This document shows, piece by piece, positions 26,486-55,370 of a stretch of DNA of 64,000 nucleotides (the first letter of the stretch is position 1; the number at the start of each line of letters is the position of its first letter). The stretch is taken from the IMG/VR virus record IMGVR_UViG_3300028394_000041, positions 102,606-166,605 of that record; one strand, written 5' to 3'. Source of the DNA: a virus. The notes below the pieces were generated by a model that saw only the letters and a program-made list of their open reading frames with translations, was not told where the DNA came from and did not search any database. The position numbers and the translations under genes are program-made.

Positions 26486-26486
26486 A

Positions 26487-40900: not shown

Positions 40901-41124
40901 TTGCTTCTCCAGTTATTTCCTACGCCTAATCTATTCTCGGAGCTAGTATAATTTAAAGGCTCGGGCGCGGCTAATTTTGATAATTTTTTATCAACTAAAG
41001 TAGTAGTTGTATTAATTTCTGATTGTATAACAGGTGCTGTATTGTTTTGTTTTTTATTAGATAAGAAGTAGAGTATTGTGATTACTAGTATAGTTAATGA
41101 TATTGTTTTTAAATTGAGTTTCAT
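40897..41124 (-). CDS. Small membrane-anchored protein
   Basis: N-terminal TM segment; GTGTAAT upstream. Confidence 0.5.
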   Translation of the reverse strand: MKLNLKTISLTILVITILYFLSNKKQNNTAPVIQSEINTTTTLVDKKLSKLAAPEPLNYTSSENRLGVGNNWRSK

Positions 41125-41593
41125 AGATTGAATAGAATTACACTCTATATATAAAAAGGCTTTTACATAAAAAGTGCCCGTCCGAAAAATTGACCTTTAA
41201 GGATATCTCTTGTTGTTTATTTTATATGAATTTTAAGAAAGTATGGGGGTATATAGTAATATAAGATAGATATAAGATAGTTATTTTAATTGTATTTAAT
41301 ATAGATCAGATAAGAGTAAGGTATAAATAACTAATATATTAAAGTAATGTGGAGATTGAAGATAGTACCCCCCTGTCACATTTTCATTTTGAGTTAATTG
41401 AATTTTTCCAAAAATGCCATACCCCTCTAGAGAAATCAAACCACGATGACCCCCAAAGGATGTTTTTAGAATAAATAAAACAGAGTTACTATGGGGTAGG
41501 GAGTATGGGCATCTGTAAATCTTTACCTATCAGTGAAATTTAACTTGAAAATATCTCTTGTGCCTTTGCTATAATATGATAGACTGCTCTTAT

Positions 41594-41767
41594 ATGAAAA
41601 ACAAATTGAGCAAGTTCGAAACCCTGCTAGCTAACCTTGAAAAAGCCTCTGCGAATCACGCTAAGGCTTGCGAGTCTTTCCTCAAAGTCTCTGAGGCTTA
41701 TTCCTCTAAGCGTGAGGAGATGCTGAAAATCTATGAGCCTAGCGATCTCAGCCACGCTTGCGAGTAA
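41594..41767 (+). CDS. Small early protein, paralog of 43773..43985
   Basis: KLSKFETLLANLEKASA vs KLTKYEILIANLEKASA. Confidence 0.6.
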   Translation: MKNKLSKFETLLANLEKASANHAKACESFLKVSEAYSSKREEMLKIYEPSDLSHACE

Positions 41768-41895
41768 TAATATGAACCAAATAGAAATCATCCTCACCCT
41801 TACCATCGTAACTATTCTTATCGGAATATACGCTATGGTAACAGCCCAAAAATAAATCATTGACACAACCAATCCAAAAGGATAATATACACACT

Positions 41896-42315
41896 ATGAA
41901 AAACCAACTAAACATCACTAAACAATCATTCGGCGATACGACTGCTTTCCTCTTGGAAGGTGGCAAGGGTCGCATCACCTCGTTCCACAATGCCCTATAC
42001 AACTGGGGTGCAACTAATGGGCAGTTGCACGATATGGGTAACGGCAAGGCGTTTTACTTCTACGCTCAACCCGATGCAGTCTTACACGCTCTTGTTAAGA
42101 TCGCTTTACACTCCCTATGTAATAAGATCAACGCAAAGGGAATGAAGGGTGGATTGATTAACCTTGCGAAGATCAAGGCTCAAGGTCAATTCGATAACAT
42201 CATTGATGGACGCTTCCTTCGCACCTCTGTCTCTAACGATACCTACGGATTCGGTACGATCACAGCAGAGAAACCTAGTGACTACTGCGGTGCAGTAAGT
42301 AGCGGGAGGGAGTAA
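41896..42315 (+). CDS. Early protein, paralog of 50628..51014
   Basis: FHNALYNWGATNG...GTITAEK; TTGACA promoter upstream. Confidence 0.65.
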   Translation: MKNQLNITKQSFGDTTAFLLEGGKGRITSFHNALYNWGATNGQLHDMGNGKAFYFYAQPDAVLHALVKIALHSLCNKINAKGMKGGLINLAKIKAQGQFDNIIDGRFLRTSVSNDTYGFGTITAEKPSDYCGAVSSGRE

Positions 42316-42319
42316 TAGT

Positions 42320-42697
42320 ATGACCGCTGAACTACTCATCATAGCATTAACAATCCTTGGCGAAGCTAGGGGCGAGACATTCGAGGGAATGGCTGGCGTT
42401 GCTAGCGTCATTCAGACACGCACCATACAGCGTAAGCAAACACCTATGCAGGTGTGCTTATCACCTAAACAATTCAGCTTCTGGAATGGTAAGGTGAGCG
42501 AATCATCTAAGCGTAAGCTACTAGCTACTAAGCAAGGCAAGGACGCTCTATACCTTGCTGACCTTGTACTGCATAAGCAGATGCCCGACATCGTCAAGGG
42601 TGCTAACCATTACCACGCTGTCAGCGTCTCGCCTAAGTGGGCTAAGGACACTAAGCTGGTCGCAGTAATACAGCACCATAAGTTCTATAAGCTATAA
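42320..42697 (+). CDS. Cell wall hydrolase, SleB/Hydrolase_2 family
   Basis: ALTILGEARGE...VASVI...QFSFWN...GANHYHA...P.WA...HHKFY. Confidence 0.85.
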   Translation: MTAELLIIALTILGEARGETFEGMAGVASVIQTRTIQRKQTPMQVCLSPKQFSFWNGKVSESSKRKLLATKQGKDALYLADLVLHKQMPDIVKGANHYHAVSVSPKWAKDTKLVAVIQHHKFYKL

Positions 42698-43002
42698 CGA
42701 TTAGCTAACCTACTGCACGTAAGTACCTACCCATCAAGGACTTACGCGCGCAGGGAGGGCGCTTGTCTAAGTGCCTAATAACTAAGGACTTACGCATGCT
42801 CGATCTTAGCGACAAAACTGATGGAACGCAAAAGATCACAACCGATCTTAGCTACAAACATGAATGAATGCATATAATCTAAGTCTCTATACATCAACTA
42901 CTTATATGAGCATCCTCCCTGCAGCTGTAACTCGTTGATAGTCAATGAAATTTAAATGCAGAAATATCTTGTGATAAGTTAAAAATATGATAGAATAAAA
43001 AC

Positions 43003-43242
43003 ATGAAATTAGAAATCAATTCAGCTGTTGAAACCTTGAAAAATGAAATAAATAAAATAATGAACCAAAAAGAATGGATGCAATTCGGAGAATCAAAGAA
43101 ATGGGATCTTTCTGAATTCAAAGCTTACAATGATGGATACAATGATGAAGGATGGGAAAAGTTCAACAATCCTTACCAAGAAAATACTCTAGTTTGGTGG
43201 CTTTATAATGCTGGTGGTTACGATTGTCACACCAATAATTAA
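43003..43242 (+). CDS. Hypothetical early protein
   Basis: 79 aa; promoter -10 box 6 nt upstream of ATG. Confidence 0.55.
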   Translation: MKLEINSAVETLKNEINKIMNQKEWMQFGESKKWDLSEFKAYNDGYNDEGWEKFNNPYQENTLVWWLYNAGGYDCHTNN

Positions 43243-43258
43243 AGAAAGAAAAAACAAT

Positions 43259-43636
43259 ATGATCAAAGCAATCCTCATCGACCCATTTAATGAAACTATA
43301 ATGAATGTCACTTTAGTAGATACTAAACTTCAAACAATCTATTCTCTCTTAGGTTGTCATCTCATTACCATAACAAATCTACAAGATGGCATTGATATGG
43401 TTTTAGATGACGAAGGTTTGTTGAAAGACAAAGAATCTCAAGCATACTTTAAGTTTGGGCTTCACTCTCAGCCTTTTGCTGGAAAAGCTTTAGTAATCGG
43501 AACAAATGACGAAGGAGACTTCGCATCTTTGCCCAAAGAAGTTTCAATAGACAAAATAAATAACCAAGTTATCTTCTTTAAACCTTCCCAAGAAACTTTG
43601 GACGAATCTACCCAAATGACTTTTACATCGTTCTAA
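43259..43636 (+). CDS. DUF3846-like protein
   Basis: KAILIDP...LQTIYSLLGC...LDDEGLL...FAGKALVIG.NDEG. Confidence 0.6.
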   Translation: MIKAILIDPFNETIMNVTLVDTKLQTIYSLLGCHLITITNLQDGIDMVLDDEGLLKDKESQAYFKFGLHSQPFAGKALVIGTNDEGDFASLPKEVSIDKINNQVIFFKPSQETLDESTQMTFTSF

Positions 43637-43772
43637 AAGTTAGCTGATGTAAGTTGTTGAATACCAACGACTTACAAAAGCGACCTCTCTGCCGCTGTAA
43701 CTCGTTGATGGTGAACGAGATTTAAATGAAGAAATATGTTGCATTTCTTCTGAAATATGCTAAACTGTATCT

Positions 43773-43985
43773 ATGAATAAGAAATTAACCAAATATGAAA
43801 TCCTAATCGCAAATCTCGAAAAAGCCTCTGCTGACTTAAAAAAAGCTAGCGAAGAATCTCAAAAAAGATTGAATGAAAGTTTCGCAAAATATCAAGAAAA
43901 AGTTTCAGTCGCTCATCATAACTCTATGATGGTCAACGAAAAACAAATTGAAAAAATCACTTGCAATTCCGCTGAAATATGCTAA
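43773..43985 (+). CDS. Small early coiled-coil protein
   Basis: Paralog of 41594..41767; leaderless-type promoter. Confidence 0.6.
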   Translation: MNKKLTKYEILIANLEKASADLKKASEESQKRLNESFAKYQEKVSVAHHNSMMVNEKQIEKITCNSAEIC

Positions 43986-44038
43986 ACTATACTTATAACA
44001 ATAAAAGATAACAAATAACAAAGAAAGAAAAAAATAAA

Positions 44039-44311
44039 ATGACTCATAGAATGATAAACTGGAATTTTCAACGAAAACAAATGCGTGAAAATATGCGAAA
44101 AAATATGGATACTACTGAATCCATCATAACTAACTCTAACAATACACCAACTTACTTTGGTGAAATATACCTTTACGAAGGAACTCTAGTAAAAGTTTCT
44201 TACAAAACTTCTGCAAATACTGCGGTTGTAACCTTCCTTGAAGGTATAGACAAAGATAAGGTTGGAACTATCAACCTTAACAATGCTAAACTAGTAAAGG
44301 AAAATAAATAA
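44039..44311 (+). CDS. Small early protein, related to 44987..45235
   Basis: IYLY..LVKV...TAVVTFLEGIDKDK. Confidence 0.55.
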   Translation: MTHRMINWNFQRKQMRENMRKNMDTTESIITNSNNTPTYFGEIYLYEGTLVKVSYKTSANTAVVTFLEGIDKDKVGTINLNNAKLVKENK

Positions 44312-44490
44312 AATGAATAACGATAATAAAAAACAATTAACTTCCCAAGAATGGGAAATTCAACGTAAAGAAAAAAATCAAACTCTTTGGGCTAATCGCA
44401 AAAAGCGATGGGCTGAATGGAAAAAAAATAATCCTGAAAAGGCTAAAGCTCACGCCTTACTAAAGGCAAAACTTAATGGAAAATAAATAA

Positions 44491-44673
44491 ATGAACATAC
44501 AACAATTCGAAGAACTCTTAAAGAATCACGATTGGACTTACGAAATGAGTGAAGACTCATACTACTATCGTAGAGGTCAAAAACAACTCAAAGAGATAGA
44601 TGAAGCTATCGCCCAAGGTGGCGAAGAATACCAAAAGCTTTACAAACAATATCGTAACAAGTTTGGAGTTTGA
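44491..44673 (+). CDS. Small conserved phage protein
   Basis: LLKNHDWTYEMSED..YYRRG motif. Confidence 0.6.
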   Translation: MNIQQFEELLKNHDWTYEMSEDSYYYRRGQKQLKEIDEAIAQGGEEYQKLYKQYRNKFGV

Positions 44674-44986
44674 CAAAATTAGCTGATGTAAGTTGTTACA
44701 AGACAACGACTTACAGACGCAGGGAGGGCTCTTGTGTAAGTTCTTGATAGTCAAAGACTTATAGATGTTCGATCTTACGACAAAACATGACTGAAAGCAA
44801 AAGATCAAAACCGATCTTGAGACAAAAACTGAATGAACGCATAAACTCTAAATTGTTACAAGTCAACGACTTACGGCGCCAACCTCCCTGTGGCTGTAAC
44901 TCGTTGATGATCAATGAAATTTAAATGAAGATTTTTGTTGCGTTTTCTCTGGAATATGCTAAACTATACTTATAACAAGATAAGAA

Positions 44987-45235
44987 ATGAAAATGAAAGA
45001 AAGAATAAATAAAATGAATATACAAATAAATCCTGAACTATACGAAAATAAAAACATATACAGATATGGCCACGAGAAATTACTCGTGAAACTTTTTCCT
45101 TCCACTATCGGTTGGAAAACTATGACTGCAACTGCTGAAATCCTCGAAGGTGAGGACAAAGGTAAGTGGACAACCATTTACCTTCGTAGCGGATTGTATA
45201 ATGTCGATACAGGTTCTCTCGTCTGGTACCGCTAA
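44987..45235 (+). CDS. Small early protein
   Basis: TAEILEGEDKGK; stop codon lies inside a palindrome copy. Confidence 0.55.
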   Translation: MKMKERINKMNIQINPELYENKNIYRYGHEKLLVKLFPSTIGWKTMTATAEILEGEDKGKWTTIYLRSGLYNVDTGSLVWYR

Positions 45236-45309
45236 GTCATTGATAGTCAATGAAATTTAACTCAAAGAAATACCTTGCAAAAAACTCAATCTGTGATAAA
45301 CTAAATAGT

Positions 45310-45588
45310 ATGAAAGATAAAGAAATGAAAAACACAATAGAATCCCTCGTAGTGGGTAAATACTACCAAATCGAAAACCATATCGCAATCTGCGAGATGC
45401 TCAATTCAACCTCTAACAAAAAATGCCTTTCCAGAATCTCTGGTGTTGGAAGTGTCCTAGCTTTTTATGATGAATTGACCGAAGTCAAAATGACTCCCGA
45501 ACTTCTCAAACAATGCGAAGAACGCAAAAATGGAACGATGAACTTCATCGGAAGTTTCAATGAATCCTCAAAATATAAAGGAGACTAA
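45310..45588 (+). CDS. Hypothetical early protein
   Basis: Start after a TTGCAA...TGATAAACT promoter. Confidence 0.55.
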   Translation: MKDKEMKNTIESLVVGKYYQIENHIAICEMLNSTSNKKCLSRISGVGSVLAFYDELTEVKMTPELLKQCEERKNGTMNFIGSFNESSKYKGD

Positions 45589-46062
45589 ATGAAAAAAATC
45601 CTTTTCAAACTAAATAAAAAAACTTATAGACTCGCTGTGAAAAATGGTGAGAGGAAAAACTTTCTGCGTGAAAGATTTTTCTACTATGTTTCGTCTGCTT
45701 GTTTGAATCTTAGAGACCTCTTGTAAGAGCCTGAGTATCAACGACTTACAAGCGCAGGGAGGCCGCCCGCGCAAGTGCTTGACCATCAACGACTTAGGAA
45801 GATAAGTTTTTGAGCGAAGCAAGATTAGATTTTCTACTATTTACTTTTATTGAAAATAAACCTTGTTCCAAATTAAATCTGTGATATATTCTAACTATGA
45901 GAAACGAAATCACATCCCTAGCGACGGAAACCTGCGAGGAAGTTTATGCGGACGCAAATGCGTTCTTCGATTACATCAACTCCAATGCTGATGTCAACGC
46001 TATGTTGGATGCGTTGAATGGTACTTATTCTAATTCTGAAACCCTTGTGGAGGTTGTCTAAT

Positions 46063-46377
46063 ATGGATTATAAAGCCTCTCTCAAGGAATGGATGAGCCA
46101 GCATATGCTGGGTGTGTTGGATGTGCGTGATATCTTGAAAGATATTCGTGAGGAGAATATGGCCAACAATATCGTGCATCGGTCTTACTCTGAGCAAAGT
46201 GATCCTCTTATCATTGGCTCTTCAGAATCGTCTTGTGAACCTGATGAGTCGATGGATGGTGACCATGATTCTGCTATGGCTTCTGCTGGCCACGGCACTG
46301 ATGAGGATTACAATGGCGGGTGCTTCCAGATGGAAGACTTTGGTTGGGCTGGTGATTCAGAAATCTGTGGAGAATAA
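46063..46377 (+). CDS. Acidic phage protein
   Basis: DESMDGDHDSAMASAGHGTDEDY motif; GGAGG RBS. Confidence 0.6.
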   Translation: MDYKASLKEWMSQHMLGVLDVRDILKDIREENMANNIVHRSYSEQSDPLIIGSSESSCEPDESMDGDHDSAMASAGHGTDEDYNGGCFQMEDFGWAGDSEICGE

Positions 46378-46780
46378 TTATGGAAATTTTTTTAACCTGT
46401 GTTTGGGCATACTTTGGTTTGGTTTTTGTGCAATTAATTTATGCTTTGATTAGATCAATTATAGAGCGTCGCTAAGTTGCTGAATATCAACGACTTGCAA
46501 CGGCAAGGTCCCTGCGGCTGTAAATCGTTAATGGTCAACGACTTACAACAACAGATAGATTACATAGAGGCTCGCCATCCTTCGAAGAACTCATCATTTT
46601 CTCTTTCTTTTTCTACAAAGGTTTTTTTATTCGTATCGAGTGGAGGAGTGTCGTTATCGCTCCAAGGATAAAAAGATTCTAGGTTTTCTTTTAATATGTT
46701 TGATATGTTCATTTTGATATTGCTAGTGTTAGAACTAATCCTAATATAACAAGGCATAAAAATATTTCCATTTAGACATC

Positions 46781-47416
46781 TTAATGCTTTTTGTAGTTAA
46801 TTGCAAACTCATTTTTATCCCAACACTTGCGACAATCTCCGCACTTGTTACCTTGTTTGGAGCTTGGGCAATTAAAATTACCTAACTTGCTCGCACCGCT
46901 AACACATAAGCCTAGTCTTTGAGCAATTCCAACGGGTGCAGGGCCATCCATCATAAGAGCAGACAAACGGATGGTAAGATTGCTAGGTACTTCACCGCCT
47001 TGTTCGATATAGGTTGAGATAAAAGCATATTCACGAGTTGGAAGCCAAAAAGAAATGTTAGGAAGATTCTTTGCAATCTTCACAATCTTTTCAATATGCC
47101 ACACACCTTGCAAGTCTCCTGAATCGTGCCACCTAAAATAAGGATTCTTAACCTTTCCGATAAGATATGTCATAGCTTCCACCCAAAGATCGTGAGTGAG
47201 TGAAGCAAAACGCTTTTCCATAGCTTTTTGAACATTGGGGAAAACATAACGCCCTTTAAGAGCGTAGCAAAAAGCACACATACTTCCTACAACATTCCGC
47301 ATTTTCTGCCCAATAAGACAACGCTTTGCGGGTGTTGAATAAGCAAATCCTGGCATCTTCGAAGGTTTTGAGAGTGTTCCGACAATCTCCTCGGCTTGTT
47401 TTTTGTTTTTGAACAT
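46781..47416 (-). CDS. Gene product 88 (gp88)-like protein
   Basis: LSKPSKMPG...C..CYA.KG.Y...FRWHDSGDL...WLPTRE...NLTIRLS...C..CRKCW. Confidence 0.75.
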   Translation of the reverse strand: MFKNKKQAEEIVGTLSKPSKMPGFAYSTPAKRCLIGQKMRNVVGSMCAFCYALKGRYVFPNVQKAMEKRFASLTHDLWVEAMTYLIGKVKNPYFRWHDSGDLQGVWHIEKIVKIAKNLPNISFWLPTREYAFISTYIEQGGEVPSNLTIRLSALMMDGPAPVGIAQRLGLCVSGASKLGNFNCPSSKQGNKCGDCRKCWDKNEFAINYKKH

Positions 47417-47544
47417 AAGAAATCTTAACATAAATTAAGTTTGATGCAAGTTTTTTTACCATTTAAATCTCGTTGATAGTCAACGACTTAGGAACGCAGG
47501 GAGGCTGCTTGCGTAAGTGGTTGATACTTAAGCAGTTGCAACTC

Positions 47545-48375
47545 TTAATAATTCATATGCAATTCTTCGTTATCTTTTTTATCGAGAAAAGCGTCAAATC
47601 TTTTTTGTGCTTTGCTAGAAGCTGAGATAATAAAGTTCATGTCTTTCTTTAATACCCCCAGCCAGTTGGAAAGATAGCTGGCAGAATTGTTAAAACATTT
47701 TTCAGAATCAATTCCGCAGAAGTTAAGACAGAGGCTAGCAAAAATCTCTGCGGTTAATTCTTCTTTGCTATAGTTCTGAGAGCCAAAACCATTTTTGATA
47801 TCGTCACTTGTGCTTTTATGCATAGCGTGACCAATCTCATGGAACGCTGTGGAGTAGTACTCCTCAACGCTGTTGAAATTTTCTTTCAAAGGCAAATCAA
47901 TCTTGTGATCTTGTGGATAGTAACAGGCACGACTGCCACCATACTTAATCTGAATCACACACTTGTTGATCAACTTCTCTGCTTCTTCTATTGGTGAAAA
48001 TTCTAACTTAGGAGTCTCTGGTTGCTTCCATTTAATTCCTTCTACATCACTCAACCCAAAAACTTTGTAATATCTCATCATTGGGAAAGTTCTGGTCAAT
48101 TCATTCTTAGCTTCTGTCTTTAGTAATTTATAGTAAACTACCATATGAGATTTTGCCCCAGCTTTGATCCTTCCGCCTAGTTCCTTGATCTGATTAAATG
48201 TAAAAAAGAAATCATCAGAAGAAACCATCCTAAGCAAAAATTGATTGATGCCTCTGTAATTCTTTTTTGAAACGCCATTACAAATCTCAAATACTTTCCA
48301 AGGCTTCTGCCAAGGGCAGACTCCTTTGTTGAGGGCTTCGATGAACTTTTCTGTGATAATTTCGTTTACTTTCAT
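47545..48375 (-). CDS. ardC: ArdC-family antirestriction / ssDNA-binding protein with zincin domain
   Basis: PWQKPW...YRGIN...TFNQIKELGG; YYSTAFHEIGH; YSKEELTAEI. Confidence 0.85.
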   Translation of the reverse strand: MKVNEIITEKFIEALNKGVCPWQKPWKVFEICNGVSKKNYRGINQFLLRMVSSDDFFFTFNQIKELGGRIKAGAKSHMVVYYKLLKTEAKNELTRTFPMMRYYKVFGLSDVEGIKWKQPETPKLEFSPIEEAEKLINKCVIQIKYGGSRACYYPQDHKIDLPLKENFNSVEEYYSTAFHEIGHAMHKSTSDDIKNGFGSQNYSKEELTAEIFASLCLNFCGIDSEKCFNNSASYLSNWLGVLKKDMNFIISASSKAQKRFDAFLDKKDNEELHMNY

Positions 48376-48508
48376 AGCTTAAATATATCAGTTTTTTTCT
48401 TTTTGTCTACTAATAAATCTCACTGACCATCAAGGACTTAGAAGCGCAGGGAGGTTGCTGACGCAAGCCCCTGATAGTCAAGGACTTGCGCCAGTTCCCA
48501 CTAACAAA

Positions 48509-48973
48509 TCAAACTAAACTAAATCCCCTTTCTCCAAGTTTAAATCGTGCAAATATGTTAGTAAGTTTCTTTTCAATTTTAGTATCTGTATCAATAACTT
48601 GATATAGCGGGTCAATTTTGTTTTGAACCCTATACTTATACTTGTTAGCAAGTTCTTTCGCTGTGTTGATTGTTATCTGTTCGATATAATTCAACATAGG
48701 AGAAGAAGGAACGCTAACGACTTGAAACATTCCAATGTTCCAGCCCGTTCCATTTCCATGAAGCGAACGATGTTGATACCAGCGCACTCGAATATCACGA
48801 GATGCCCCGATATAAACACGCCATCCCCACGGACTCGCTTTGATAAGGCAGTAAACGCCCATACGAAGCGAAGCATTTTGGCGAGACTTCGATGTGGAAA
48901 ACGAAGTTCTCATGGTTGTAGTTAAATGTCCACGCATTGTTTTTTTGATGTCTTGTGTTAGTGTTGTTGTCAT
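48509..48973 (-). CDS. GIY-YIG nuclease family protein
   Basis: GVYCL...VYIGASRDIRVRWYQH...IEQ. Confidence 0.7.
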   Translation of the reverse strand: MTTTLTQDIKKTMRGHLTTTMRTSFSTSKSRQNASLRMGVYCLIKASPWGWRVYIGASRDIRVRWYQHRSLHGNGTGWNIGMFQVVSVPSSPMLNYIEQITINTAKELANKYKYRVQNKIDPLYQVIDTDTKIEKKLTNIFARFKLGERGFSLV

Positions 48974-49181
48974 TCTTGTATAGTATCATAGTTTTACTTT
49001 TTGTCACGAAAATATAAGAAATAAATCTCGTTGACTATCAAGGACTTAGGGACACAGGGAGGTTGCTTTTGTAACTCGTTGATACTAAATGATTTAGCTA
49101 GTTTAAGTTGTTGTATTTGTTATTTGTCTATTTTGCTATTACTATTTGCAATTTTGTGTAATATAATTTGCAGTTTATTAT

Positions 49182-49379
49182 ATGAGTGATAATATTAAAG
49201 AAGATATGAATTATATACTGAGTCATTCATTGTTATATAAAAATTTCTTGAGCGAAAGAGAAGAAATCTTAAAGCACAAATGGATTGAAAGCGAAAAAGC
49301 AGGACATGATATTGGTTTTGAAAAAGCTTTATTAAGTTGGGTTTGCCATCACAGAGACAAGTGGCGCAATAAAATATAA
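49182..49379 (+). CDS. DUF4032-like small protein (PVC-type)
   Basis: EREEILKHKWIESEKAGHDIGFEKALLSW; GTGTAAT upstream. Confidence 0.7.
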   Translation: MSDNIKEDMNYILSHSLLYKNFLSEREEILKHKWIESEKAGHDIGFEKALLSWVCHHRDKWRNKI

Positions 49380-49383
49380 ACTA

Positions 49384-49543
49384 TACTCGATGGTGTTGGA
49401 CGCTACCCCAACTCGTCTACGCCTTTCGGCTCAGACAGAAGTTCTTGGATAAAAGTCTCCTAAGAATCATTCTGTTGCGTGTCTCCAGTTTCTACCTAAG
49501 TTATTATTGCAAACTCACAGCTACCACGCCGATCCATCAAGTA
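49384..49543 (-). ncRNA. 160-nt tRNA-shaped structured RNA with enlarged arms
   Basis: Terminal stem TACTTGATGG/CCATCGAGTA, four internal arms, own TTGACT-N16-TACTAT promoter at 49563-49590. Confidence 0.6.
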
Positions 49544-49671
49544 ATAGAAAAGAACTATCTGTATAGTATCAGAACTTAGATCAGAGTCAAATAAAAAAGA
49601 CGAGATTTTTTAGGTCTCGCCCTTTCTATATGAAGGGAAGGGGAAAGATAACCCCACCCATCTCTCTGTTG

Positions 49672-49938
49672 TTAGACTGGCGAGAGACCACCAGCGATGC
49701 GATCATAGCGGAATTGCTTCACGCCAGAATCCATACGACCAGAGAAGCAGAAACTCGTAAAGAGCTTGTTGCCAGCTTTGCTAATCGTAAAAGAACTAGG
49801 CTTGCTGATGATGTAGGTATAAACCTGCTCACCGCCGTAGGGTTTGTATTCGATTAAATACCTTTGCCCCAAGAGGAAAAGGATGAAGTGTTTGAGATAT
49901 GAGGTTGCGTATATGATTGCGTTTTTAATTTTGTTCAT
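49672..49938 (-). CDS. Small protein with WYL-like C-terminus
   Basis: FCFS...VKQFRYDRI. Confidence 0.45.
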   Translation of the reverse strand: MNKIKNAIIYATSYLKHFILFLLGQRYLIEYKPYGGEQVYTYIISKPSSFTISKAGNKLFTSFCFSGRMDSGVKQFRYDRIAGGLSPV

Positions 49939-50462
49939 ACTTAAATATACCACATCTTTGTTTTTTCACAAGAAAAATCTTTAGTTAAATCTCGTTGATG
50001 GTCAACGACTTACGCAAACGAGAGGGTTGCTTTTGTAAATCCTTGATAGGTAAGGACTTAGGAGTGTTGTTTTATTCTTCTAACTGTTTCCAATTAGGAT
50101 GAGCTTTTGCCCATTTGCTATAATGTATTTCTAAACCAGCCAAGTATGTTTCTATTTCAGAGATAAGCTTAGGATCTTCGTCCTTTAGGATTTTCTTTTC
50201 TAATATTTTGCTTATTCTATTTTCATGTTTCATATCACTATATATTACATGTATTTGCTATTAATATCAATAAAATTCTATTTTTATAATTATTAATTGT
50301 TTTTTTATTTTAGATGTGTAATTAATATTTTGATCAATGACTCTACTACGCTCGAGCTTATTACCAACATTATAGTTAAAATTAAAAATTCTGGAAAGTA
50401 TCTAATAAAAAACTTATTCACATACTGGCTTACATCTTAATTATTATTTAGAGAAAATAATT

Positions 50463-50536
50463 CGCTCCTAGCAGGAATTGAACCTGCAACCTACAGTTTA
50501 GAAAACTGTTACTCTATCCAGTTGAGTTATAGGAGC
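50463..50536 (-). tRNA. tRNA-Arg(UCU)
   Basis: Cloverleaf; anticodon arm ACAGT-TTTCTAA-ACTGT; GGTTCAATTCC T-arm. Confidence 0.9.
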
Positions 50537-50548
50537 AACAAGAAAACT

Positions 50549-50621
50549 TCGCCTAAGTCAGACTCGAACTGACACTTGAACGATTTTAAGTCGTTTGCCT
50601 CTGCCATTGGGCTACTAGGCG
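50549..50621 (-). tRNA. tRNA-Leu(UAA), short variable loop
   Basis: AACGA-CTTAAAA-TCGTT anticodon arm; GTTCGAGTC T-loop. Confidence 0.85.
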
Positions 50622-50627
50622 AATAGA

Positions 50628-51014
50628 TTAACTATCCGTATCTAATTTTTCAGCAGAGATTGTGCCAATAGAATAAAAGTCTTGAGCTTCTGCTGTATGC
50701 ATAAAAGATTCTACTGGAATGTTTGCAATCGCGGTTTTCATTCTGTGCATAGCAACCGCTTTCATTCCACCCTTCTTGCCTCTAAACTTTTTGCCAAGCT
50801 TGTCGCTCATTCCATTCAACATATACTTAAACATAACTCGTTCCAGCTTCTCCATAGTAATCCAAAAATATCCAAAGCTCTCACTCATCCATTGAATACT
50901 TCCGTTTGTTCCGCCCCAGTTATATATGCGGTTGTGAAACTGCTCAATGTCATCTACTTTACCTTTCATTCCAATAACCCAATGTGCCCCAAGATTTTGT
51001 TTAATTAATGTCAT
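50628..51014 (-). CDS. Early protein, paralog of 41896..42315
   Basis: FHNRIYNWGGTNG...IGTISAEK. Confidence 0.65.
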   Translation of the reverse strand: MTLIKQNLGAHWVIGMKGKVDDIEQFHNRIYNWGGTNGSIQWMSESFGYFWITMEKLERVMFKYMLNGMSDKLGKKFRGKKGGMKAVAMHRMKTAIANIPVESFMHTAEAQDFYSIGTISAEKLDTDS

Positions 51015-51057
51015 AGTTTTATATTATACTTTCTTTGTTTTTTGTCAAGAGTTGTTT

Positions 51058-51129
51058 TGGGTCGTATAGGACTTGAACCTATAACAAATTCCTTAAAAGG
51101 GAACTACTCTACCATTGAGTTAACGACCC
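51058..51129 (-). tRNA. tRNA-Lys(UUU)
   Basis: GTTCC-CTTTTAA-GGAAT anticodon arm; GGTTCAAGTCC. Confidence 0.9.
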
Positions 51130-51245
51130 TTTTTTAGCAAGTCTTTCCTTGTTGGTAAAGTAATCTTTGATATCTTGTTCTGTTAACTCTGAGTGCTTGT
51201 TATATGAATGAAGCATCCAATCAGCGCACGGAGAAGAAAGGAGAG

Positions 51246-51317
51246 TGGGCAAGGCTGGACTCGAACCAGCACTAGGAAAATTATGAGTTTTCTGTTTCAC
51301 CTTTAAACTACTTGCCC
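51246..51317 (-). tRNA. tRNA-Met or Ile2 (CAU)
   Basis: GAAAA-CTCATAA-TTTTC anticodon arm; GGTTCGAGTCC. Confidence 0.85.
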
Positions 51318-51572
51318 CACTTTAGAAGGAAAACTGGAAGGTTTCGGCACTTGGAAAAACTCTACTGCAAAAGCCTTGGAATAATTCTCCAAGTCTTTGA
51401 GTGAACAAGTTTCCTTGGGCGTACACATACGGATTGCTGAGTTTAGGATAACGGCTCGGTCTTGGCCGAACACATTCATCACATAGAATGGTGCTTTTTG
51501 TTTTGTCATAATGTAAGAATACCACAACTTGAGTTTTTGTCAATAAAAGAATCTCGTTGACTATCAGTGACT

Positions 51573-51663
51573 TACTAGAGGTAGGATTCGAACCTACATT
51601 GCGCTCAAATCTAGAGCTTCACGAGTATAAGTCGTGGGTCTTAACCAGTTAGACGACTCTAGC
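51573..51663 (-). tRNA. tRNA-Ile(UAU) with long variable arm
   Basis: CACGA-CTTATAC-TCGTG anticodon arm; ~20-nt variable arm with GCTC/GAGC stem; GGTTCGAATCC. Confidence 0.85.
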
Positions 51664-51832
51664 ATGTAGTGTCAGCCTCCGAAGTTACTCGCCAATTTTC
51701 TTGATCACTACTTTTGTTCCGTCTGGCCAACGCTTGATGATTGCTCTCCAATGGTTCGCCTCGGCTTCTGCCTCTTCCAAGCTGTTGTGCATATCGTAAC
51801 TAACCCGAATACCATCTCTCAAAACAATATAC

Positions 51833-52069
51833 TTAAGATTCATTTTCTACCTCCATTACTACTGAGTTGTCAAATAATGAGCCACCATCTACTGCATCAC
51901 AAATAACAATATCGCTACTGCCATCGTCACCAGCATAGACGGCTCGGAGTTTCTTTACTTGACTATGTTTGATGTTTGTCCATTTACTTTCTGGAACGCC
52001 AAGGACTTGCAGAGCCTCGACTCTCTCTGGTGAAAGTGCTTCACCGCTTACTGAACATTTATATGTCAT
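51833..52069 (-). CDS. Small protein resembling a degenerate DksA/TraR finger
   Basis: CSVSGEALSPERVEAL resembles CxxCGExIxxxRLEA. Confidence 0.4.
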   Translation of the reverse strand: MTYKCSVSGEALSPERVEALQVLGVPESKWTNIKHSQVKKLRAVYAGDDGSSDIVICDAVDGGSLFDNSVVMEVENES

Positions 52070-52073
52070 AACC

Positions 52074-52490
52074 TTATACTACCTCCATTTGATTTTCTGT
52101 CAAGTGAATTTCTGCTGGAGGTGCTGGAAGAATATTGCTCTTCCGAGGACGACCACGCTTACGCTTCTCGCCACTAGCTAAAACAGAAGTTGCGGTGTAG
52201 TTTGTTAGTTTGTCTTTGAGTTGAATGAAACGCTTGTCTGCATCTTCTCGACTAGTACAAGTATAAGCCCAATCTCCCCATTGAGTGTTGGAAGGATACA
52301 TCTCTGCTGGAGGCATTTTGATTCCTGCAATCTCGTAACCATTGTGACGCTTAATTGCAATTACCTCGAAGTTACTTTCGCCTGACTCAGAATCTTCTAG
52401 TGTCTTTTTATAGATAGCAACATCTCCTTCTCGTTTGACGAGAGAAAGGTTAAATCCTTTGCTGTTAAAATTATCTTCAAGAATTTTCAA
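52074..52490 (-). CDS. Hypothetical protein with AT-hook
   Basis: KRKRGRPRK near the C-terminus. Confidence 0.6.
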   Translation of the reverse strand: MKILEDNFNSKGFNLSLVKREGDVAIYKKTLEDSESGESNFEVIAIKRHNGYEIAGIKMPPAEMYPSNTQWGDWAYTCTSREDADKRFIQLKDKLTNYTATSVLASGEKRKRGRPRKSNILPAPPAEIHLTENQMEVV

Positions 52491-52660
52491 TTTTTACTCC
52501 TTCTGGAAGCCAACCCTTGATGTCGAGTCCGTCTCCAATATAACCAACTTGCATTTCACTTTTAGTTTTGGGGTCTACTGCATAAATAGCGTAGCCACCT
52601 TCAGCGAGTTTTTTGATTTTAGTTATCTTTTCCATTTAAAGATTATACTATACTTTCTTT

Positions 52661-53002
52661 TTAATTCAAGACAAATATATCACGATTAATAATACCAGCC
52701 CATTTAACTTTATATACTGGCTCTAGGTTATCAGCATAAACAAAGCTATTATACTTATAAGGATTGTAGGTAACTTTTCTTTCTACTTGGTCTACTGGCC
52801 AACCATCATCTGGAGTACCACATACAAAAGCGTGAACATTCTTTCTTTGTTCTTTTAAAACCCTGGAACGACCTGCTTGACTCACTCTAAATTCTACATC
52901 CTTCAAAAAGAATTCTGTGCTATGCTCTAATACTTTTCCACGAAGCATAATAGATAAACATTTTTTATGCAAATTATAATATACTTTATGTTTGGCTCTC
53001 AT
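52661..53002 (-). CDS. Conserved hypothetical phage protein
   Basis: VYYNLHK...FRVSQAGR.RVL.E.RKNVHAFV.G...YNPYK. Confidence 0.7.
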   Translation of the reverse strand: MRAKHKVYYNLHKKCLSIMLRGKVLEHSTEFFLKDVEFRVSQAGRSRVLKEQRKNVHAFVCGTPDDGWPVDQVERKVTYNPYKYNSFVYADNLEPVYKVKWAGIINRDIFVLN

Positions 53003-53134
53003 CTCATAACTATAACATAATAGAATAAAAAGTCAAGAGATATATCTCATTGTATATCAAATACTTACAAAGGCAACCTCCGTGCGCGCGTAACTCGTTG
53101 ATGGATAAGCACTTATAATTCATTAGATTTAGAC

Positions 53135-53169
53135 AAAAAGAATGCGAGGGGATTGACCCCTCGCACTCT
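53135..53169 (-). terminator. Rho-independent terminator
   Basis: TGCGAGGGG-loop-CCCCTCGCA stem with T-run, after the DUF932 gene. Confidence 0.75.
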
Positions 53170-53188
53170 GTTAAGATTTCGTTTTAGT

Positions 53189-54043
53189 TTAGGAGACTAG
53201 CTTGAGCAAGTCTTCATCGCGAGTGGCTCCGCTGAATACCTTCAGCAAGTCACGGCTAACCCTCTCGCTATACTCATACCGCTCTTCAGCGACATTACGC
53301 GTTAAGAATTGCGTAGTGGCGTTGTAGAGGTTGTACAAGTTGCGATCAGTGTCCAACTCGTAGGACGGATTACGCCAAACTGCCTCGATGCCTTCGCGCA
53401 CCTTGCCAGAGATGTAATCCTTCTCTTCGAGCTTGGTGAGCAAGGTCAAACCCTGCTCATCAGTGATCGCCTTTTCAGCAAGACGATTGAACACGTTTGC
53501 GCTCTTGTCTACATTGGCGAGAGCATTCTTTAATGCGTCACCAACGAAGTCAAGATTCACCGCAAGCGTGTGACGCTTAGTGAATCCGAACTCCTTCGAT
53601 AGTGAGGTCATTCCGTTTGTGCAAACCAAACGAATGAACCCAAGCGAGAACGATACCCTGCAACTGCGATCATAGCTATTGTTAGCTGTGAGGCGCAGAC
53701 CAAGGATATCACCCTTTGCTCGCTTACCAACTGGCTTGAGCTCAGTCTTGAACTCAGGGAAGTCATAGCTCGCATAAAAACGAGCTCCATCGCGCACCAC
53801 AATAGCCTTGCGAGTATACTCGCCAAGCCCTTGATTAGTGAGCGATTCTTCCACCATGCTGATCATGTCTGCATTCTTCACCACACCATACTGCTCGGTG
53901 CAAACTCCGAGTGTTATGGGTTCGGCGGTGTCACGGCGCACCATTCCGAAGTATCCTGTCCTCTTGCCGTCTGTTGTGAGGAGTGGCTCTTGATGAATAT
54001 CAAAATCATATTCACTTGAGCTTGGTTTAGTTGTTCTTGCCAT
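53189..54043 (-). CDS. DUF932 (LGT_TIGR03299-like) family protein
   Basis: RRDT..LGV....YGVVKN...NSYD.S...RLVCTNG...RHT...LYNLYNATTQ. Confidence 0.8.
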   Translation of the reverse strand: MARTTKPSSSEYDFDIHQEPLLTTDGKRTGYFGMVRRDTAEPITLGVCTEQYGVVKNADMISMVEESLTNQGLGEYTRKAIVVRDGARFYASYDFPEFKTELKPVGKRAKGDILGLRLTANNSYDRSCRVSFSLGFIRLVCTNGMTSLSKEFGFTKRHTLAVNLDFVGDALKNALANVDKSANVFNRLAEKAITDEQGLTLLTKLEEKDYISGKVREGIEAVWRNPSYELDTDRNLYNLYNATTQFLTRNVAEERYEYSERVSRDLLKVFSGATRDEDLLKLVS

Positions 54044-54210
54044 ATAGTAATCATACCACAGTTTTAAGTTATGACAAGAACTTTTTACTATCATAAGATA
54101 CTGCCTGCTAATGCTTTATAGGAAATCGTAAAAATATATTCCTATCTGTAACCCCTTGACTGTCAACGACTTGCGGGGGCGGTGGGGGCCCCAATATAAA
54201 CCCTTAATAA

Positions 54211-54666
54211 TCAAATACTTAAACCAAACTTAATATTATCTTTTCTATACTCTCTTACTTTCCTCTTAGCATATAAACTAGCATCAACTTCACATAATTT
54301 AGCTTTAGTTCCAATATTATATTTTCTTATCTTTTTAATACCATGATAAAACTTACCTTTTTTAAATTGATATAGGTGTCTTAGTTCATGAGATATTAAT
54401 TCAATTAATGATTCTTCCCAGCTATATGTATGTATACTTAAATAGCCTCTGAATCCACCACTCTTGTATACTTTAACATACTTTTTATATTCTGGAACTC
54501 CCACATGCACTCTCATACTTCCCCATGCTCTGCCATGCCAACCCCTTTTAGTATTGCCAAAATCTATCTTTCGGATATCTTTAAGGAATACTCCTTCTGG
54601 CATGCACCATTTAATAATTTCTTTTAGTTTCTCAGAGCATAGGAATGTTCTATTAATTAACTTCAT
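54211..54666 (-). CDS. Zincin-like (HExxH) protein
   Basis: ISHELRHLYQ...CEVDA. Confidence 0.6.
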   Translation of the reverse strand: MKLINRTFLCSEKLKEIIKWCMPEGVFLKDIRKIDFGNTKRGWHGRAWGSMRVHVGVPEYKKYVKVYKSGGFRGYLSIHTYSWEESLIELISHELRHLYQFKKGKFYHGIKKIRKYNIGTKAKLCEVDASLYAKRKVREYRKDNIKFGLSI

Positions 54667-54794
54667 AATCTGATAATACAATAAATTAAAATTATGTCAA
54701 TAGCACAAAATTAAAATATATTCTTATCATATCTATTGAATTATCATGTATTTATTATTAATCAAGCTCTATTTGTTATTTATTTGTTTCTTAT

Positions 54795-55370
54795 TTAGTT
54801 ATTTCGACCACTCATCTCAGTCCATATCAATAAGTCTGCTTGTGCTGTTGATACATTAGGAAAGTAAATAGCTTTATAATAAAAGAATAAACTCTCTATT
54901 TGTTTATATTTCTTTTCGTCTTGAGGTGTTGACAATGGTATTTCAATAGCAGAATCATCTCCACTTACTTTTCTTAACCAATTTAATATATGAACATCTA
55001 ACACAGCAATGTTTTGATTCTCTCTTGTATGTAATAAAAAGAATCGTGCTGTTTTATTTCCTACTCCATATACTTTAAGAAGTCTTTCTAGCGAGTCATT
55101 AACTAAATCTAAATCAAGACTATGTCTTATAGCTTTGGTGATTCGGTTATATTGGCCTACCTTGTTGGCAACAAGAAAGTTATGTAACCCAACGCCAAGG
55201 TCTTTGAAGTATTGAAATAAATCGCCATTAGCTCTGCTCATAAGTTGTGATAGCTTTCGACTTGCGATATCGCTATTCTTTCCTGCGACTAGAATGCAGA
55301 ATATCCAAAAAGCTTGAAGTTCGAGCTTATTGCGGTTAAAGTTGGTTATGTTTTTTGGGTCAATGGTCAT
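54795..55370 (-). CDS. HhH DNA glycosylase/lyase (8-oxoguanine glycosylase-like)
   Basis: VYGVGNKTARFFL...IAVLDVHILNWL...YKQIE...DLLIW. Confidence 0.75.
   Translation of the reverse strand: MTIDPKNITNFNRNKLELQAFWIFCILVAGKNSDIASRKLSQLMSRANGDLFQYFKDLGVGLHNFLVANKVGQYNRITKAIRHSLDLDLVNDSLERLLKVYGVGNKTARFFLLHTRENQNIAVLDVHILNWLRKVSGDDSAIEIPLSTPQDEKKYKQIESLFFYYKAIYFPNVSTAQADLLIWTEMSGRNN

Follow-up and report, generated by a model that had tools for sequence, protein, structure and literature searches.

Why is the same pair of palindromes repeated between one small early gene cassette and the next in the genome of a virus? This question is raised by the record IMGVR_UViG_3300028394_000041, of which positions 102,606 to 166,605 (64,000 nucleotides, the window) were analysed. 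An initial annotation had suggested that two protein dimers bind the palindromes at a fixed distance, and that the repeats are operators of a regulon, recombination sites of an integron-like cassette array, or loading and protection sites on the first-injected DNA. We favour another reading, to which we assign a probability of about one half: The repeats would be double-stranded cis-acting modules of 73 bp, made of bending sites for a host protein of the HU/IHF type, that aid the early promoters and bound the cassettes.

The palindromes of the early region

The initial annotation had listed about 29 palindromes, paired with an invariant period of 48 bp and limited to about 41.5-54.3 kb. When all 29 listed starts were read, the 48-bp spacing was exact in 13/13 pairs, and three palindromes were single (41516, 45233 and 51550). 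The full inventory of the region 41.5-54.2 kb contains one further, degenerate copy at 43919, which lies within the ORF 43773-43985 and has its own promoter. A scan of the window with the motif TAAGT-NN-TTGA-NNN-TCAA-NN-ACTTA (up to three mismatches) yielded 21 matches, every one of them within 42720-54221, whereas shuffled sequences gave 0.14 matches on average and never more than 2. A complete unit thus has 73 bp: a 25-bp palindrome, a GC-rich dyad in a 23-nt spacer, and a second 25-bp palindrome. The individual units and singles are as follows (gaps in bp, from the palindrome to the -35 box):

41516..41540, + strand: single proximal palindrome, arm GAAATTTAAC; left edge of the early region; promoter TGn-TATAAT, gap 5-7
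42720..42792, - strand: reversed unit, GCAGGGAGG on the + strand, no promoter; directly 3' of the stop codon of a SleB-like hydrolase gene
42880..42996, + strand: forward unit (42880-42952) and promoter TTGTGA, 16 nt, TGn-TAGAAT (42969-42996); ATG 43003 is 6 nt past the -10 box
43650..43766, + strand: forward unit (43650-43722) and promoter, TTGCAT 43739-43744, TAAACT 43761-43766; ATG downstream at 43773
43919..43988, + strand: degenerate single inside ORF 43773-43985 and promoter for gene 44039
44689..44761, - strand: reversed unit, no promoter; left half of a 279-nt divergent double unit
44849..44965, + strand: forward unit (44849-44921) and promoter TTGCGT / TGn-TAAACT, gap 16
45233..45302, + strand: single proximal palindrome and promoter TTGCAA / TAAACT, gap 17
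45724..45796, - strand: reversed unit, no promoter
46473..46545, + strand: unit at the convergence of the + and - strand early arms, no promoter
47422..47538, - strand: unit (47466-47538) and promoter for a GP88-family gene, TTGCAT / TGn-TAAGAT, gap 16
48382..48488, - strand: unit (48416-48488) and promoter for an ArdC-like gene, TAGACA / TGn-TATATT, gap 6; ATG 6 nt past the -10 box
48980..49096, - strand: unit (49024-49096) and promoter GTGACA / TGn-TACTAT, gap 16, serving a weak GIY-YIG-like ORF (48509-48973)
49944..50060, - strand: unit (49988-50060) and promoter TTGTGA / TGn-TATATT, gap 16
51516..51574, - strand: single palindrome (51550-51574) adjoining the 3' end of tRNA-Ile(tat), and promoter TTGACA / TGn-TATTCT, gap 6
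53009..53115, - strand: unit (53043-53115) and promoter for an L5 gp82-like gene, TTGACT / TGn-TATAGT, gap 6
54149..54221, - strand: rightmost unit, upstream of a DUF932 gene; spacer atypical, though likewise of 23 nt

A separate intrinsic terminator is located at 53169-53139, upstream of the promoter of unit 53043.

The units start 0-25 nt past stop codons; as had been noticed, palindromes 45233 and 45724 open with the TAA that terminates ORFs 44987-45235 and 45589-45726, respectively. The proposal that the spacer core is asymmetric and follows the promoter also holds: The CCTCCCTGC-type strand is the sense strand of the promoter in every unit that has a phased promoter, and the units at 42720, 44689 and 45724, which are reversed, have none. 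The 279-nt divergent double unit is present twice, at 42719-42997 and as a copy whose left half is the 44689 unit. The block encodes anti-defence-type genes, e.g. ArdC-like, DUF932 and SprT-like proteins, and the GC content of the cassettes is heterogeneous (0.33-0.48 vs about 0.30 in the backbone).

Scanning related phages, as had been proposed, revealed that the motif is clade-wide, with 835 palindromes in 119 IMG/VR loci. The module of palindrome, GC-rich dyad and palindrome is found in over 90 IMG/VR contigs from a single phage clade and is restricted to one region of 10-13 kb in each complete genome. Members of the clade that bear the same palindrome share only about 40% protein identity; they are not T4-type phages, and the terminase shares no more than 24% identity with that of any cultured phage. 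A tape measure protein of 2559 aa presumably also belongs to the phage genome. The period is specific for the lineage (42, 48, 50, 51 or 58 bp) and spans 4.0 to 5.5 helical turns, so that the relative direction of the two putative bends is not conserved and a single defined three-dimensional architecture cannot be the conserved function. In some sister lineages, the GC dyad is a true terminator consisting of a hairpin and a T-tract.

The palindromes resemble paired IHF half-sites

Do the palindromes act as DNA or as RNA? Across 346 units, no excess of complementarity between the arms or of compensatory pairing was detected (z-scores of at most 2), position 4 of the palindrome forms Watson-Crick pairs in only 41-46% of the units, and each half-site is conserved independently of the other. 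Since the arms lack covariation and the half-sites are conserved on their own, the palindromes look like double-stranded protein sites rather than hairpins, which supports the earlier idea that two protein dimers may bind duplex DNA.

The profile built from 1772 half-sites, W(.80) A(.48) T(.91) C(.86) A(.99) A(.86) C G A S T(.94) T(.98) A(.90), of which the W and the first A lay outside the search pattern, fits the IHF consensus of Escherichia coli, WATCAANNNNTTR, at every specified position, even though the A of WATCAA is conserved in only 48%. The textbook IHF site is asymmetric, has an upstream (5') A/T tract and is bound by an alpha/beta heterodimer. In contrast, the phage site is a perfect dyad of two half-sites mirrored about a central base, as would be expected for a homodimer, and the N4 positions are conserved (CGAS), unlike in the canonical consensus. 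A symmetric IHF site is thus an extrapolation from the asymmetric one. Known IHF sites and IHF-assisted promoters include the lambda H' site, Mu Pe and oriC.

The palindrome also occurs, as a single copy, in bacterial chromosomes, where 99 exactly matching stretches were found. An Akkermansia genome has 22 sites, a second genome (G006) 11 and Fibrobacter eight, as compared to none in the respective controls. The Akkermansia sites are all intergenic (nine in divergent and one or two in convergent contexts); one is located 109 bp upstream of dnaA and another one 15 nt before a TGGCAC-N5-TTGCA box. These contexts, i. e. upstream of promoters, beside a sigma-54-type box and upstream of dnaA, are shared with IHF sites. 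In the scan of the Verrucomicrobia that had been suggested, the strict palindrome is rare in most of the 61 Verrucomicrobiota genomes, two of which supply most of the matches.

The motif-bearing bacteria possess HU/IHF paralogues, none of which reaches the equivalog cut-off for IHF-alpha or IHF-beta in the candidate host genomes. A single IHF-leaning gene is present in G006 and in Fibrobacter, which would be compatible with a homodimer on a symmetric site. PF00216 (HU/IHF) is missing from four related phage records (three complete), and a host factor is for this reason the most likely binder. Likewise, since the same site is present in bacterial chromosomes, a host DNA-bending protein is favoured over a dedicated phage repressor.

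The modules are phased with early promoters

In the window, TGn extended -10 promoters stand at fixed gaps downstream of ten units or singles. Between the end of the palindrome and the -35 box there are 16-17 bp (eight cases) or 5-6 bp (four cases). The relatives use the same gaps, 6 or 16 bp, in 24 non-redundant promoters. The arm of the proximal palindrome is modified, as had been described, to the A/T-rich GA(A/G)ATTTAA, and the linked promoters appear to yield leaderless mRNAs. The centre of the proximal site is at about -53/-63, and that of the distal site at about -101/-111. The arrangement is not universal: Unit 54149 is out of register with the promoter at 54077 (the nearest good promoter is about 71 bp away), the strong promoters 52669, 52103 and 51048 have no unit, and in the 58-bp lineage the promoter is found 110-125 bp beyond the unit.

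We propose that each palindrome is a mirror pair of IHF-type half-sites (WATCAA-N4-TTA), to which a homodimeric member of the HU/IHF family of DNA-bending proteins, most likely supplied by the host, is predicted to bind with high affinity. The proximal site is in constant helical phase with a strong extended -10 promoter, 6 or 16 bp before its -35 box, and a sharp bend near -53/-63 together with the A/T-rich, UP-like arm would help the host RNA polymerase to start transcription of the early cassettes. The entire module may also be the boundary between cassettes. Since the same sequence of about 75 bp recurs every 0.3-1.5 kb, its copies could as a side effect serve as portable homology by which ordinary recombination adds, deletes and swaps cassettes among related phages.

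Alternative explanations

The idea of an operator regulon, i. e. that a dimeric regulator conserved in the phage clade binds the palindromes and shuts off or times the early promoters, is possible but doubtful. Phasing of the proximal site with promoters agrees with it; a centre at about -53/-63, however, is typical of an activator or an architectural protein and thus disfavours a repressor, and both this and the distal site are clear of the -35 and -10 boxes. Moreover, there are units without promoters and promoters without units. The restriction of the motif to the early region and its rarity in most of the bacterial genomes sampled would suit a phage regulator, for which the 364-aa protein A5 (25391-26485) is the candidate: Its family was found together with the motif in 5/5 phage records tested and co-occurs with it in 28-38 loci, it contains repeated (L/F)(T/S)xEQ(K/R) motifs, and its predicted model has N-terminal three-helix bundles followed by long coiled coils. 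But searches against Pfam, PDB sequences and Foldseek gave no support for a DNA-binding fold, and the gene is located in the late block beside the terminase and may encode a small-terminase-like protein. The same palindrome is also scattered over bacterial chromosomes in which A5 is absent. No helix-turn-helix regulator, which the initial annotation had thought worth searching for, and no RHH family protein was found in a search of 32 ORFs from the early region and the sequence flanking it.

Could the modules act in the transcript? Transcribed palindromes and the GC dyad might fold to terminate transcription, to be cut by RNase III or to protect mRNA 3' ends, as modelled on REP elements and the early processing sites of T7. 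Folding energies speak for this idea (-45.9 kcal/mol, z -6.2, for a unit of locus L029; z -2 to -4.3 for the window units), the symmetric positions of the spacer retain dyad symmetry despite sequence change, and in the 58-bp lineage a central GC hairpin followed by TTTTG lies co-directionally with the genes, immediately past stop codons. In the window lineage, however, the T-rich side of the spacer is on the strand antisense to the downstream promoter, and 0 window units score as intrinsic terminators. Rfam 15 gave only five tRNAs and chance-level matches in 41000-55000. Together with the lack of covariation in the arms, a G/C position that fails to pair in over half of the sites, conservation of the sequence itself and not merely of pairing across lineages, and bacterial copies mainly in divergent promoter regions, this renders an RNA-level element improbable.

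A role at the genome end is very improbable. The block might be a long terminal repeat or the first-entering DNA, with the palindromes acting in packaging, pausing of ejection or protection. A single confined block of 10-13 kb per genome, full of early anti-defence-type genes, would be in keeping with this, by analogy to SPO1 and T5, the terminal repeats of which hold the earliest genes. Yet the strict helical register with promoters indicates a role in transcription, the block is internal in the contigs, and the IMG/VR records of the relatives have no end repeats.

The exchange of cassettes bears on the last alternative, dedicated recombination or transposition sites of the attC, REP/RAYT or MITE type. 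Close relatives do differ in cassettes, and the ends of these differences coincide with units. The cassette 48460-49151 is absent from locus L114, and with respect to the closest relative a crossover inside units 48416 and 49024 makes a clean unit-by-unit cassette indel. Two other indels each have one end at a palindrome edge, 43650 and 45233 (the right end of the indel vs L114 is 45232). Breakpoints in the repeats, on which the initial annotation had made its cassette model depend, are therefore seen in individual cases, but the overall enrichment (125/369 homology-block ends near palindromes vs 47.8 expected) is confounded because the ends and the palindromes are both intergenic. At the clean junction, the crossover falls inside shared sequence and looks like ordinary homologous recombination between repeats; no target-site duplications were present at the junctions examined. 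Dedicated sites, for which the heterogeneous GC content of the cassettes and the likeness of the divergent double units to terminal inverted repeats could also be quoted, are largely refuted: Tyrosine and serine recombinases (PF00589, PF00239) and the Y1 transposase (PF01797) were found neither in four related records (three complete) nor in the early ORFs of the window, where the initial annotation had seen no recombinase either; the period varies among lineages, and the 3-bp central gap of the palindrome is of odd length and variable in sequence. Integron attC sites are single-stranded hairpins conserved in structure rather than in sequence, their cassettes are mostly promoterless, and they are served by an IntI-type tyrosine recombinase. 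Here, the sequence is conserved without pairing covariation and most cassettes own a promoter, so the attC array was rejected, as were REP/BIME elements with a RAYT, given the lack of PF01797.

Comparison with known systems

We found no published description of this module family. The promoter-early stem-loops (PeSLs) of T4-type phages combine a terminator stem-loop with a promoter, and minicircles formed at PeSLs have been demonstrated experimentally (Arbiol 2010, PMC2839356; Comeau 2014, PMC4122927). PeSLs and the modules are both short composite motifs repeated among small variable early genes in plastic regions only, both link the end of one gene with the early promoter of its downstream neighbour, and in both cases indels and replacements between close relatives end in the motif, with homologous recombination and no dedicated recombinase. 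The GC hairpin with TTTTG of the 58-bp lineage may be a counterpart of the terminator stem-loop; no window unit scores as an intrinsic terminator. The modules differ from PeSLs in that they consist of two sequence-specific, apparently protein-binding palindromes about a GC dyad without stem covariation, and in that the palindrome is retained throughout an entire clade of other phages.

The BIME and RIP (RIB) elements of enterobacteria are REP palindromes that alternate in orientation and have fixed spacers, one class of which contains an IHF site (PMC2817692, PMC3479197). They share with the modules a mosaic of intergenic palindromes, set spacer lengths and, in our case putatively, the recruitment of a DNA-bending protein. 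In RIPs, however, the spacer contains the IHF site and the REPs form GC-rich hairpins, whereas in the phages the palindromes are IHF-like and the spacer is the GC-rich dyad; moreover, the modules have no RAYT-type transposase and reside in a phage rather than a chromosome.

The stoperators of cluster A mycobacteriophages, asymmetric 13-bp sites for the phage repressor, are likewise present in dozens of copies in short intergenic spaces with an orientation tied to the direction of transcription. They are scattered genome-wide, whereas the sites described here are symmetric, paired, confined to one block and shared with bacterial chromosomes.

The host-takeover module of SPO1, about 13 kb long and with a strong promoter for every one of its many small early genes, is similar in size and promoter strength to the block studied here. 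SPO1 encodes its own HU-family protein, TF1, which prefers sites at early promoters and needs hmU-containing DNA; the present phages have no HU-family gene, and their sites are precise paired palindromes.

Paired palindromes mark the early region throughout a phage clade

The palindromes of the early region are probably docking points for an architectural protein of the host, predicted to lie inside a promoter-and-boundary module that doubles as a recombination joint. The array reported in the initial annotation is real: With up to three mismatches allowed, the consensus TAAGT-NN-TTGA-NNN-TCAA-NN-ACTTA yields 21 matches, compared to 0.14 expected from shuffled sequences, and all 21 are located between 42720 and 54221. 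Inspection of the 29 positions listed there confirmed 13 pairs spaced by exactly 48 bp and three lone palindromes; a further degenerate single is present at 43919. The same units of 73-76 bp, i. e. two palindromes flanking a GC-rich core, were recovered by a repeat search of the window. They are embedded in a block of small ORFs encoded on the plus strand from 41.5 to 46.5 kb and on the minus strand from 46.5 to 54.7 kb. Among the cassette genes, we recognised those for a SleB-like hydrolase, DUF3846, GP88, an L5 gp82-like protein, DUF932 and an ArdC-like protein with a zincin domain as well as a weak GIY-YIG-like ORF; five tRNAs are also encoded in the block. The GC content varies from 0.33 to 0.48 across the cassettes as compared to about 0.30 in the backbone.

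The element is widespread among uncultured phages. An exact-pattern scan of IMG/VR with TCGTTGA-N3-TCAACGACTTA identified at least 119 loci with at least 835 palindromes, nearly all of them paired. Among the matches listed, the period is constant within a contig at 42, 48, 50, 51 or 58 bp, with 50 bp being the most common, and a GC-rich inverted repeat of lineage-specific sequence is always found between the paired palindromes. The contigs carrying the motif share with the window, at about 35-45% identity, the terminase, the portal protein, a phage sigma factor (26487-27170), PhoH (38215-38949) and a 364-aa protein (25391-26485). The confinement to a single block, as seen in the window, recurs in the three complete or near-complete relatives: The palindromes are restricted to 124.7-135.3 kb of a 171.9-kb record, to 93.2-106.2 kb of a 137.7-kb record and to 97.0-107.6 kb of a 112-kb record, and a reversed control pattern had no match in any of them. 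Megablast revealed neither a cultured relative nor an annotated homologue of the early region, the identity of the terminase to that of any cultured phage does not exceed 24%, and a short-query blastn search of INPHARED with the palindrome gave chance-level matches only.

No description of the element was found in the literature searched, and the motif strings occurred there just in primers and in one terminator table, that of phage DLP6. In the intrinsic terminators of this Stenotrophomonas T4-like phage, a GC hairpin comes after the upstream context TCAACGACTTAG or GACTTAGCGAA (PMC5349666), and this junction is the same as that of the right arm and the GC dyad in the window units. Full palindromes were not detected by blastn. 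The nearest known things are the promoter-early stem-loops (PeSLs) of T4-type phages, IHF-assisted promoters and BIME/RIP elements.

The half-sites resemble the binding site of an IHF-like protein

The initial annotation had proposed two protein dimers that bind at fixed geometry. This idea is supported by a covariation analysis, in which the arm positions of 346 non-identical units were set against within-contig shuffles of their partners: There was no excess complementarity, neither within palindromes nor between paired palindromes (z at most 2), the G/C arm position forms a Watson-Crick pair in just 41-46% of the cases, and two positions per arm are invariant. The half-sites are therefore conserved independently of each other, as predicted for a dimeric protein on double-stranded DNA and not for a selected RNA or single-stranded DNA stem. 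A hairpin function of the palindromes was rejected, since covariation did not exceed that of the within-contig shuffles; the units do fold well, but this follows automatically from the palindromic symmetry, and no Rfam family matches them.

The spacer length is constant within a genome even where the sequence is unrelated, as in the unit at 54149. Between the lineages, the period ranges from 4.0 to 5.5 helical turns, and one conserved three-dimensional shape is therefore unlikely. The constancy would be better explained by a lineage-specific master copy, recombinational homogenisation and some local constraint acting jointly.

The profile of 1772 half-sites reads, from the centre outward, W(.80) A(.48) T C A A C G A S T T A, with the W and A positions being unconstrained by the search pattern. 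It agrees with the E. coli IHF consensus WATCAANNNNTTR at all specified positions, mirrored about the central W. Such a symmetrised site would be expected to be preferred by a homodimeric IHF-like protein. The TCAA elements are 3 bp apart, and the published IHF-DNA structure then suggests kinks spaced by about 9 bp, give or take about 1 bp.

The binding protein is probably derived from the host rather than encoded by the phage. A phage-encoded HU/IHF protein, as in the case of TF1, was ruled out by the absence of such a gene from four related phage records, including three complete ones. Moreover, none of the 32 ORFs of the early region and its flanks matched DNA-binding or recombinase families.

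The pattern is also present in 99 bacterial genome stretches, many of them from Verrucomicrobia, other PVC phyla and Fibrobacter, mainly as single sites in high-GC chromosomal DNA. At up to two mismatches, there were 22 sites in an Akkermansia genome, 11 in a Verrucomicrobiae MAG and eight in Fibrobacter succinogenes, as compared to none in each control. All 22 Akkermansia sites are intergenic and located 48-135 bp from start codons; nine have a divergent context, as compared to only one or two with a convergent one. A site is present upstream of dnaA, and another precedes a textbook sigma-54-type box by 15 nt. The strict palindrome was common in only two of the 61 Verrucomicrobiota genomes sampled. 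The palindrome-bearing bacteria possess HU/IHF paralogues, with only one IHF-leaning gene each in two of them. No common neighbour gene that would have named a regulon was found at the bacterial sites.

Twelve of the 22 Akkermansia palindromes (L219-L238, genome G005) have a second conserved motif at a distance of 5-25 nt, roughly GGGGTGTGCATT-N3-AATGCTGTATAC with the core dyad GCATT-N3-AATGC, that may serve as a co-regulator site or belong to a promoter. About 18 of some 80 single bacterial matches (among them loci L136, L150, L161, L163, L165, L173, L178, L180, L181, L184, L194, L196, L198, L204, L209, L211 and L214) and one phage copy (window 51550-51574) directly adjoin a tRNA or tmRNA gene at its 3' end. 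An explanation as att sites was rejected, as just one of ten neighbouring ORFs encodes an integrase.

Units are linked to promoters in fixed register

At 12 sites in the window, the palindrome proximal to the promoter is followed by a −35 box that is separated by 16 nt from a TGn extended −10 region. Eight of these sites have a gap of 16-17 bp between the palindrome end and the −35 box, and the other four one of 5-6 bp. For 24 non-redundant promoters from relatives with the 48-bp period, the gap is 16 (n=15), 15 (n=3), 6 (n=5) or 5 bp (n=1). Since the gaps cluster at about 16 and about 6 bp, there are two classes one helical turn apart. In the proximal palindrome, the outer arm is replaced by the A/T-rich GA(A/G)ATTTAAAT at the position of an UP element. 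The palindrome centres are found near −53/−63 and −101/−111, positions that are those of an architectural or activator site and not of a repressor. Thus, the operator regulon considered in the initial annotation stands as far as the linkage to promoters in fixed register is concerned, whereas the positions speak against repression, and the predicted binder is probably a host architectural protein. The units are not obligatory for promoters: Promoters without units are present at 52669, 52103 and 51048, and units without a promoter at 42720, 44689, 45724 and 46473.

The early promoters appear, from the position of the start codons, to make leaderless mRNAs: An ATG follows the −10 hexamer by 5-7 nt at about eight of the 12 window promoters, and by exactly 6 nt at 21 of the 24 promoters of relatives (among L002-L115).

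Intervals from the −10 hexamer to the ATG in the window
42996-43005
43766-43775
48382-48373
48980-48971
49944-49937
51516-51507

The GC-rich spacer retains its dyad symmetry while the sequence changes between lineages. In the lineage with the 58-bp period, it consists of a 7-bp GC hairpin followed by TTTTG, is co-directional with the genes and directly follows stop codons; it is therefore a credible intrinsic terminator. The spacer of the window lineage is weak with the T-rich side on the antisense strand, and none of the window units scores as a terminator. In L034, a contig of the 58-bp lineage, a further short dyad, TCTGTTAG ... CTAACA, recurs after the second palindrome (5640-5700, 1540-1570) and precedes promoters 110-125 bp downstream.

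Cassette turnover at the units

Three segments of the window are additional to the sequence of L114, its closest relative (nucleotide identity 86-94%).

Window segments absent from the closest relative
42698-43647, at most 2 bp from a palindrome edge (43650) on one side, just past a stop codon on the other
44484-45231, at most 2 bp from a palindrome edge (45233) on one side, just past a stop codon on the other
48460-49151, GIY-YIG-like cassette, clean crossover

At the crossover, the sequence of the relative corresponds to unit 48416 as far as the common core CAGGGAGGTTGCT and to unit 49024 beyond it. The suggestion that gene gain and loss break within units is borne out by 48416 x 49024; in the other two segments, one end is located next to a palindrome. 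Reading junction 1 as a chimeric palindrome was rejected, since the difference in the left half (one versus two mismatches) was too weak. In nine relatives, 125 of 369 homology-block ends were within 25 bp of a palindrome as compared to 47.8 expected; as breakpoints and units are both intergenic, which explains much of the enrichment, this lends weak support to a link with the palindromes.

The initial annotation had also raised an integron-like cassette array. This is not supported, nor are resolvase- and RAYT-based schemes: Tyrosine recombinases, serine recombinases and Y1 transposases are all absent from four related records, including three complete ones. The turnover fits ordinary homologous recombination among the dispersed repeats, and in this respect the units are similar to the PeSLs of T4-type phages, for which such recombination has been described (PMC2839356, PMC4122927).

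In the cassette that the relative lacks, a 154-aa ORF (48509-48973) has a weak GIY-YIG match (E 0.003, below the cut-off). If this were a homing endonuclease, the flanking units would supply the homology for its spread. Paralogous gene pairs (41860-42315 and 50628-51014; 41558-41767 and 43773-43985) are located in different cassettes and in both arms of the early region. Moreover, a 279-nt repeat with 71% identity comprises a reversed unit, a conserved 86-bp core (42794-42879, 44763-44848) and a forward unit. The core contains GATCTTA-N2-3-ACAAAAC twice in direct orientation, at a distance of about 44 nt; since its small ORF is not conserved, it may act as an additional binding site or encode a small RNA.

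A possible recombinase-free cassette system for early genes

It is conceivable, with a probability of roughly 0.3, that this clade of large phages has evolved a standard boundary-and-booster part, in which two mirror-symmetric sites of very high affinity for a homodimeric IHF-like host protein clamp a GC core. Upon entry, the sites would at once load the host architectural protein onto the DNA that is expressed first; the loaded sites would then activate the leaderless early and anti-defence cassettes, insulate them from each other and make every cassette exchangeable among phages. The early region is where anti-defence genes sit (ArdC-like, DUF932, SprT-like), and such a part would constitute a recombinase-free cassette system for counter-defence genes, accounting for the shuffling of small genes in these phages without a recombinase. 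It would also expose a hitherto unknown sequence specificity of IHF-like proteins outside the Proteobacteria, with a predicted recognition sequence in Verrucomicrobia including Akkermansia (22 sites on the chromosome, with the one ahead of dnaA among them), and provide a simple cis-rule for the earliest genes of a large group of environmental phages without a cultured member. In metagenomic phage contigs, the palindrome is a useful marker for locating early regions and the limits of cassettes, and it may hint at the host.

A clade-conserved operon upstream of the terminase gene

The 364-aa protein shared by the clade is encoded in a conserved late-block operon (25391-27583).

Operon upstream of the terminase gene, in gene order
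27167-27583, Zn-ribbon protein
26487-27170, sigma-70-family factor
25391-26485, 364-aa protein

The 364-aa protein was absent from the palindrome-bearing bacteria and present in all five phage records tested, which again favours a binder of the palindromes derived from the host. Neither Foldseek nor sequence profiles matched its fold to the PDB, and searches with the 282-aa and Zn-ribbon families were likewise without a match. The structure model, with a pLDDT of 80, shows helical bundles and long coiled coils; the protein may be small-terminase-like or regulatory.
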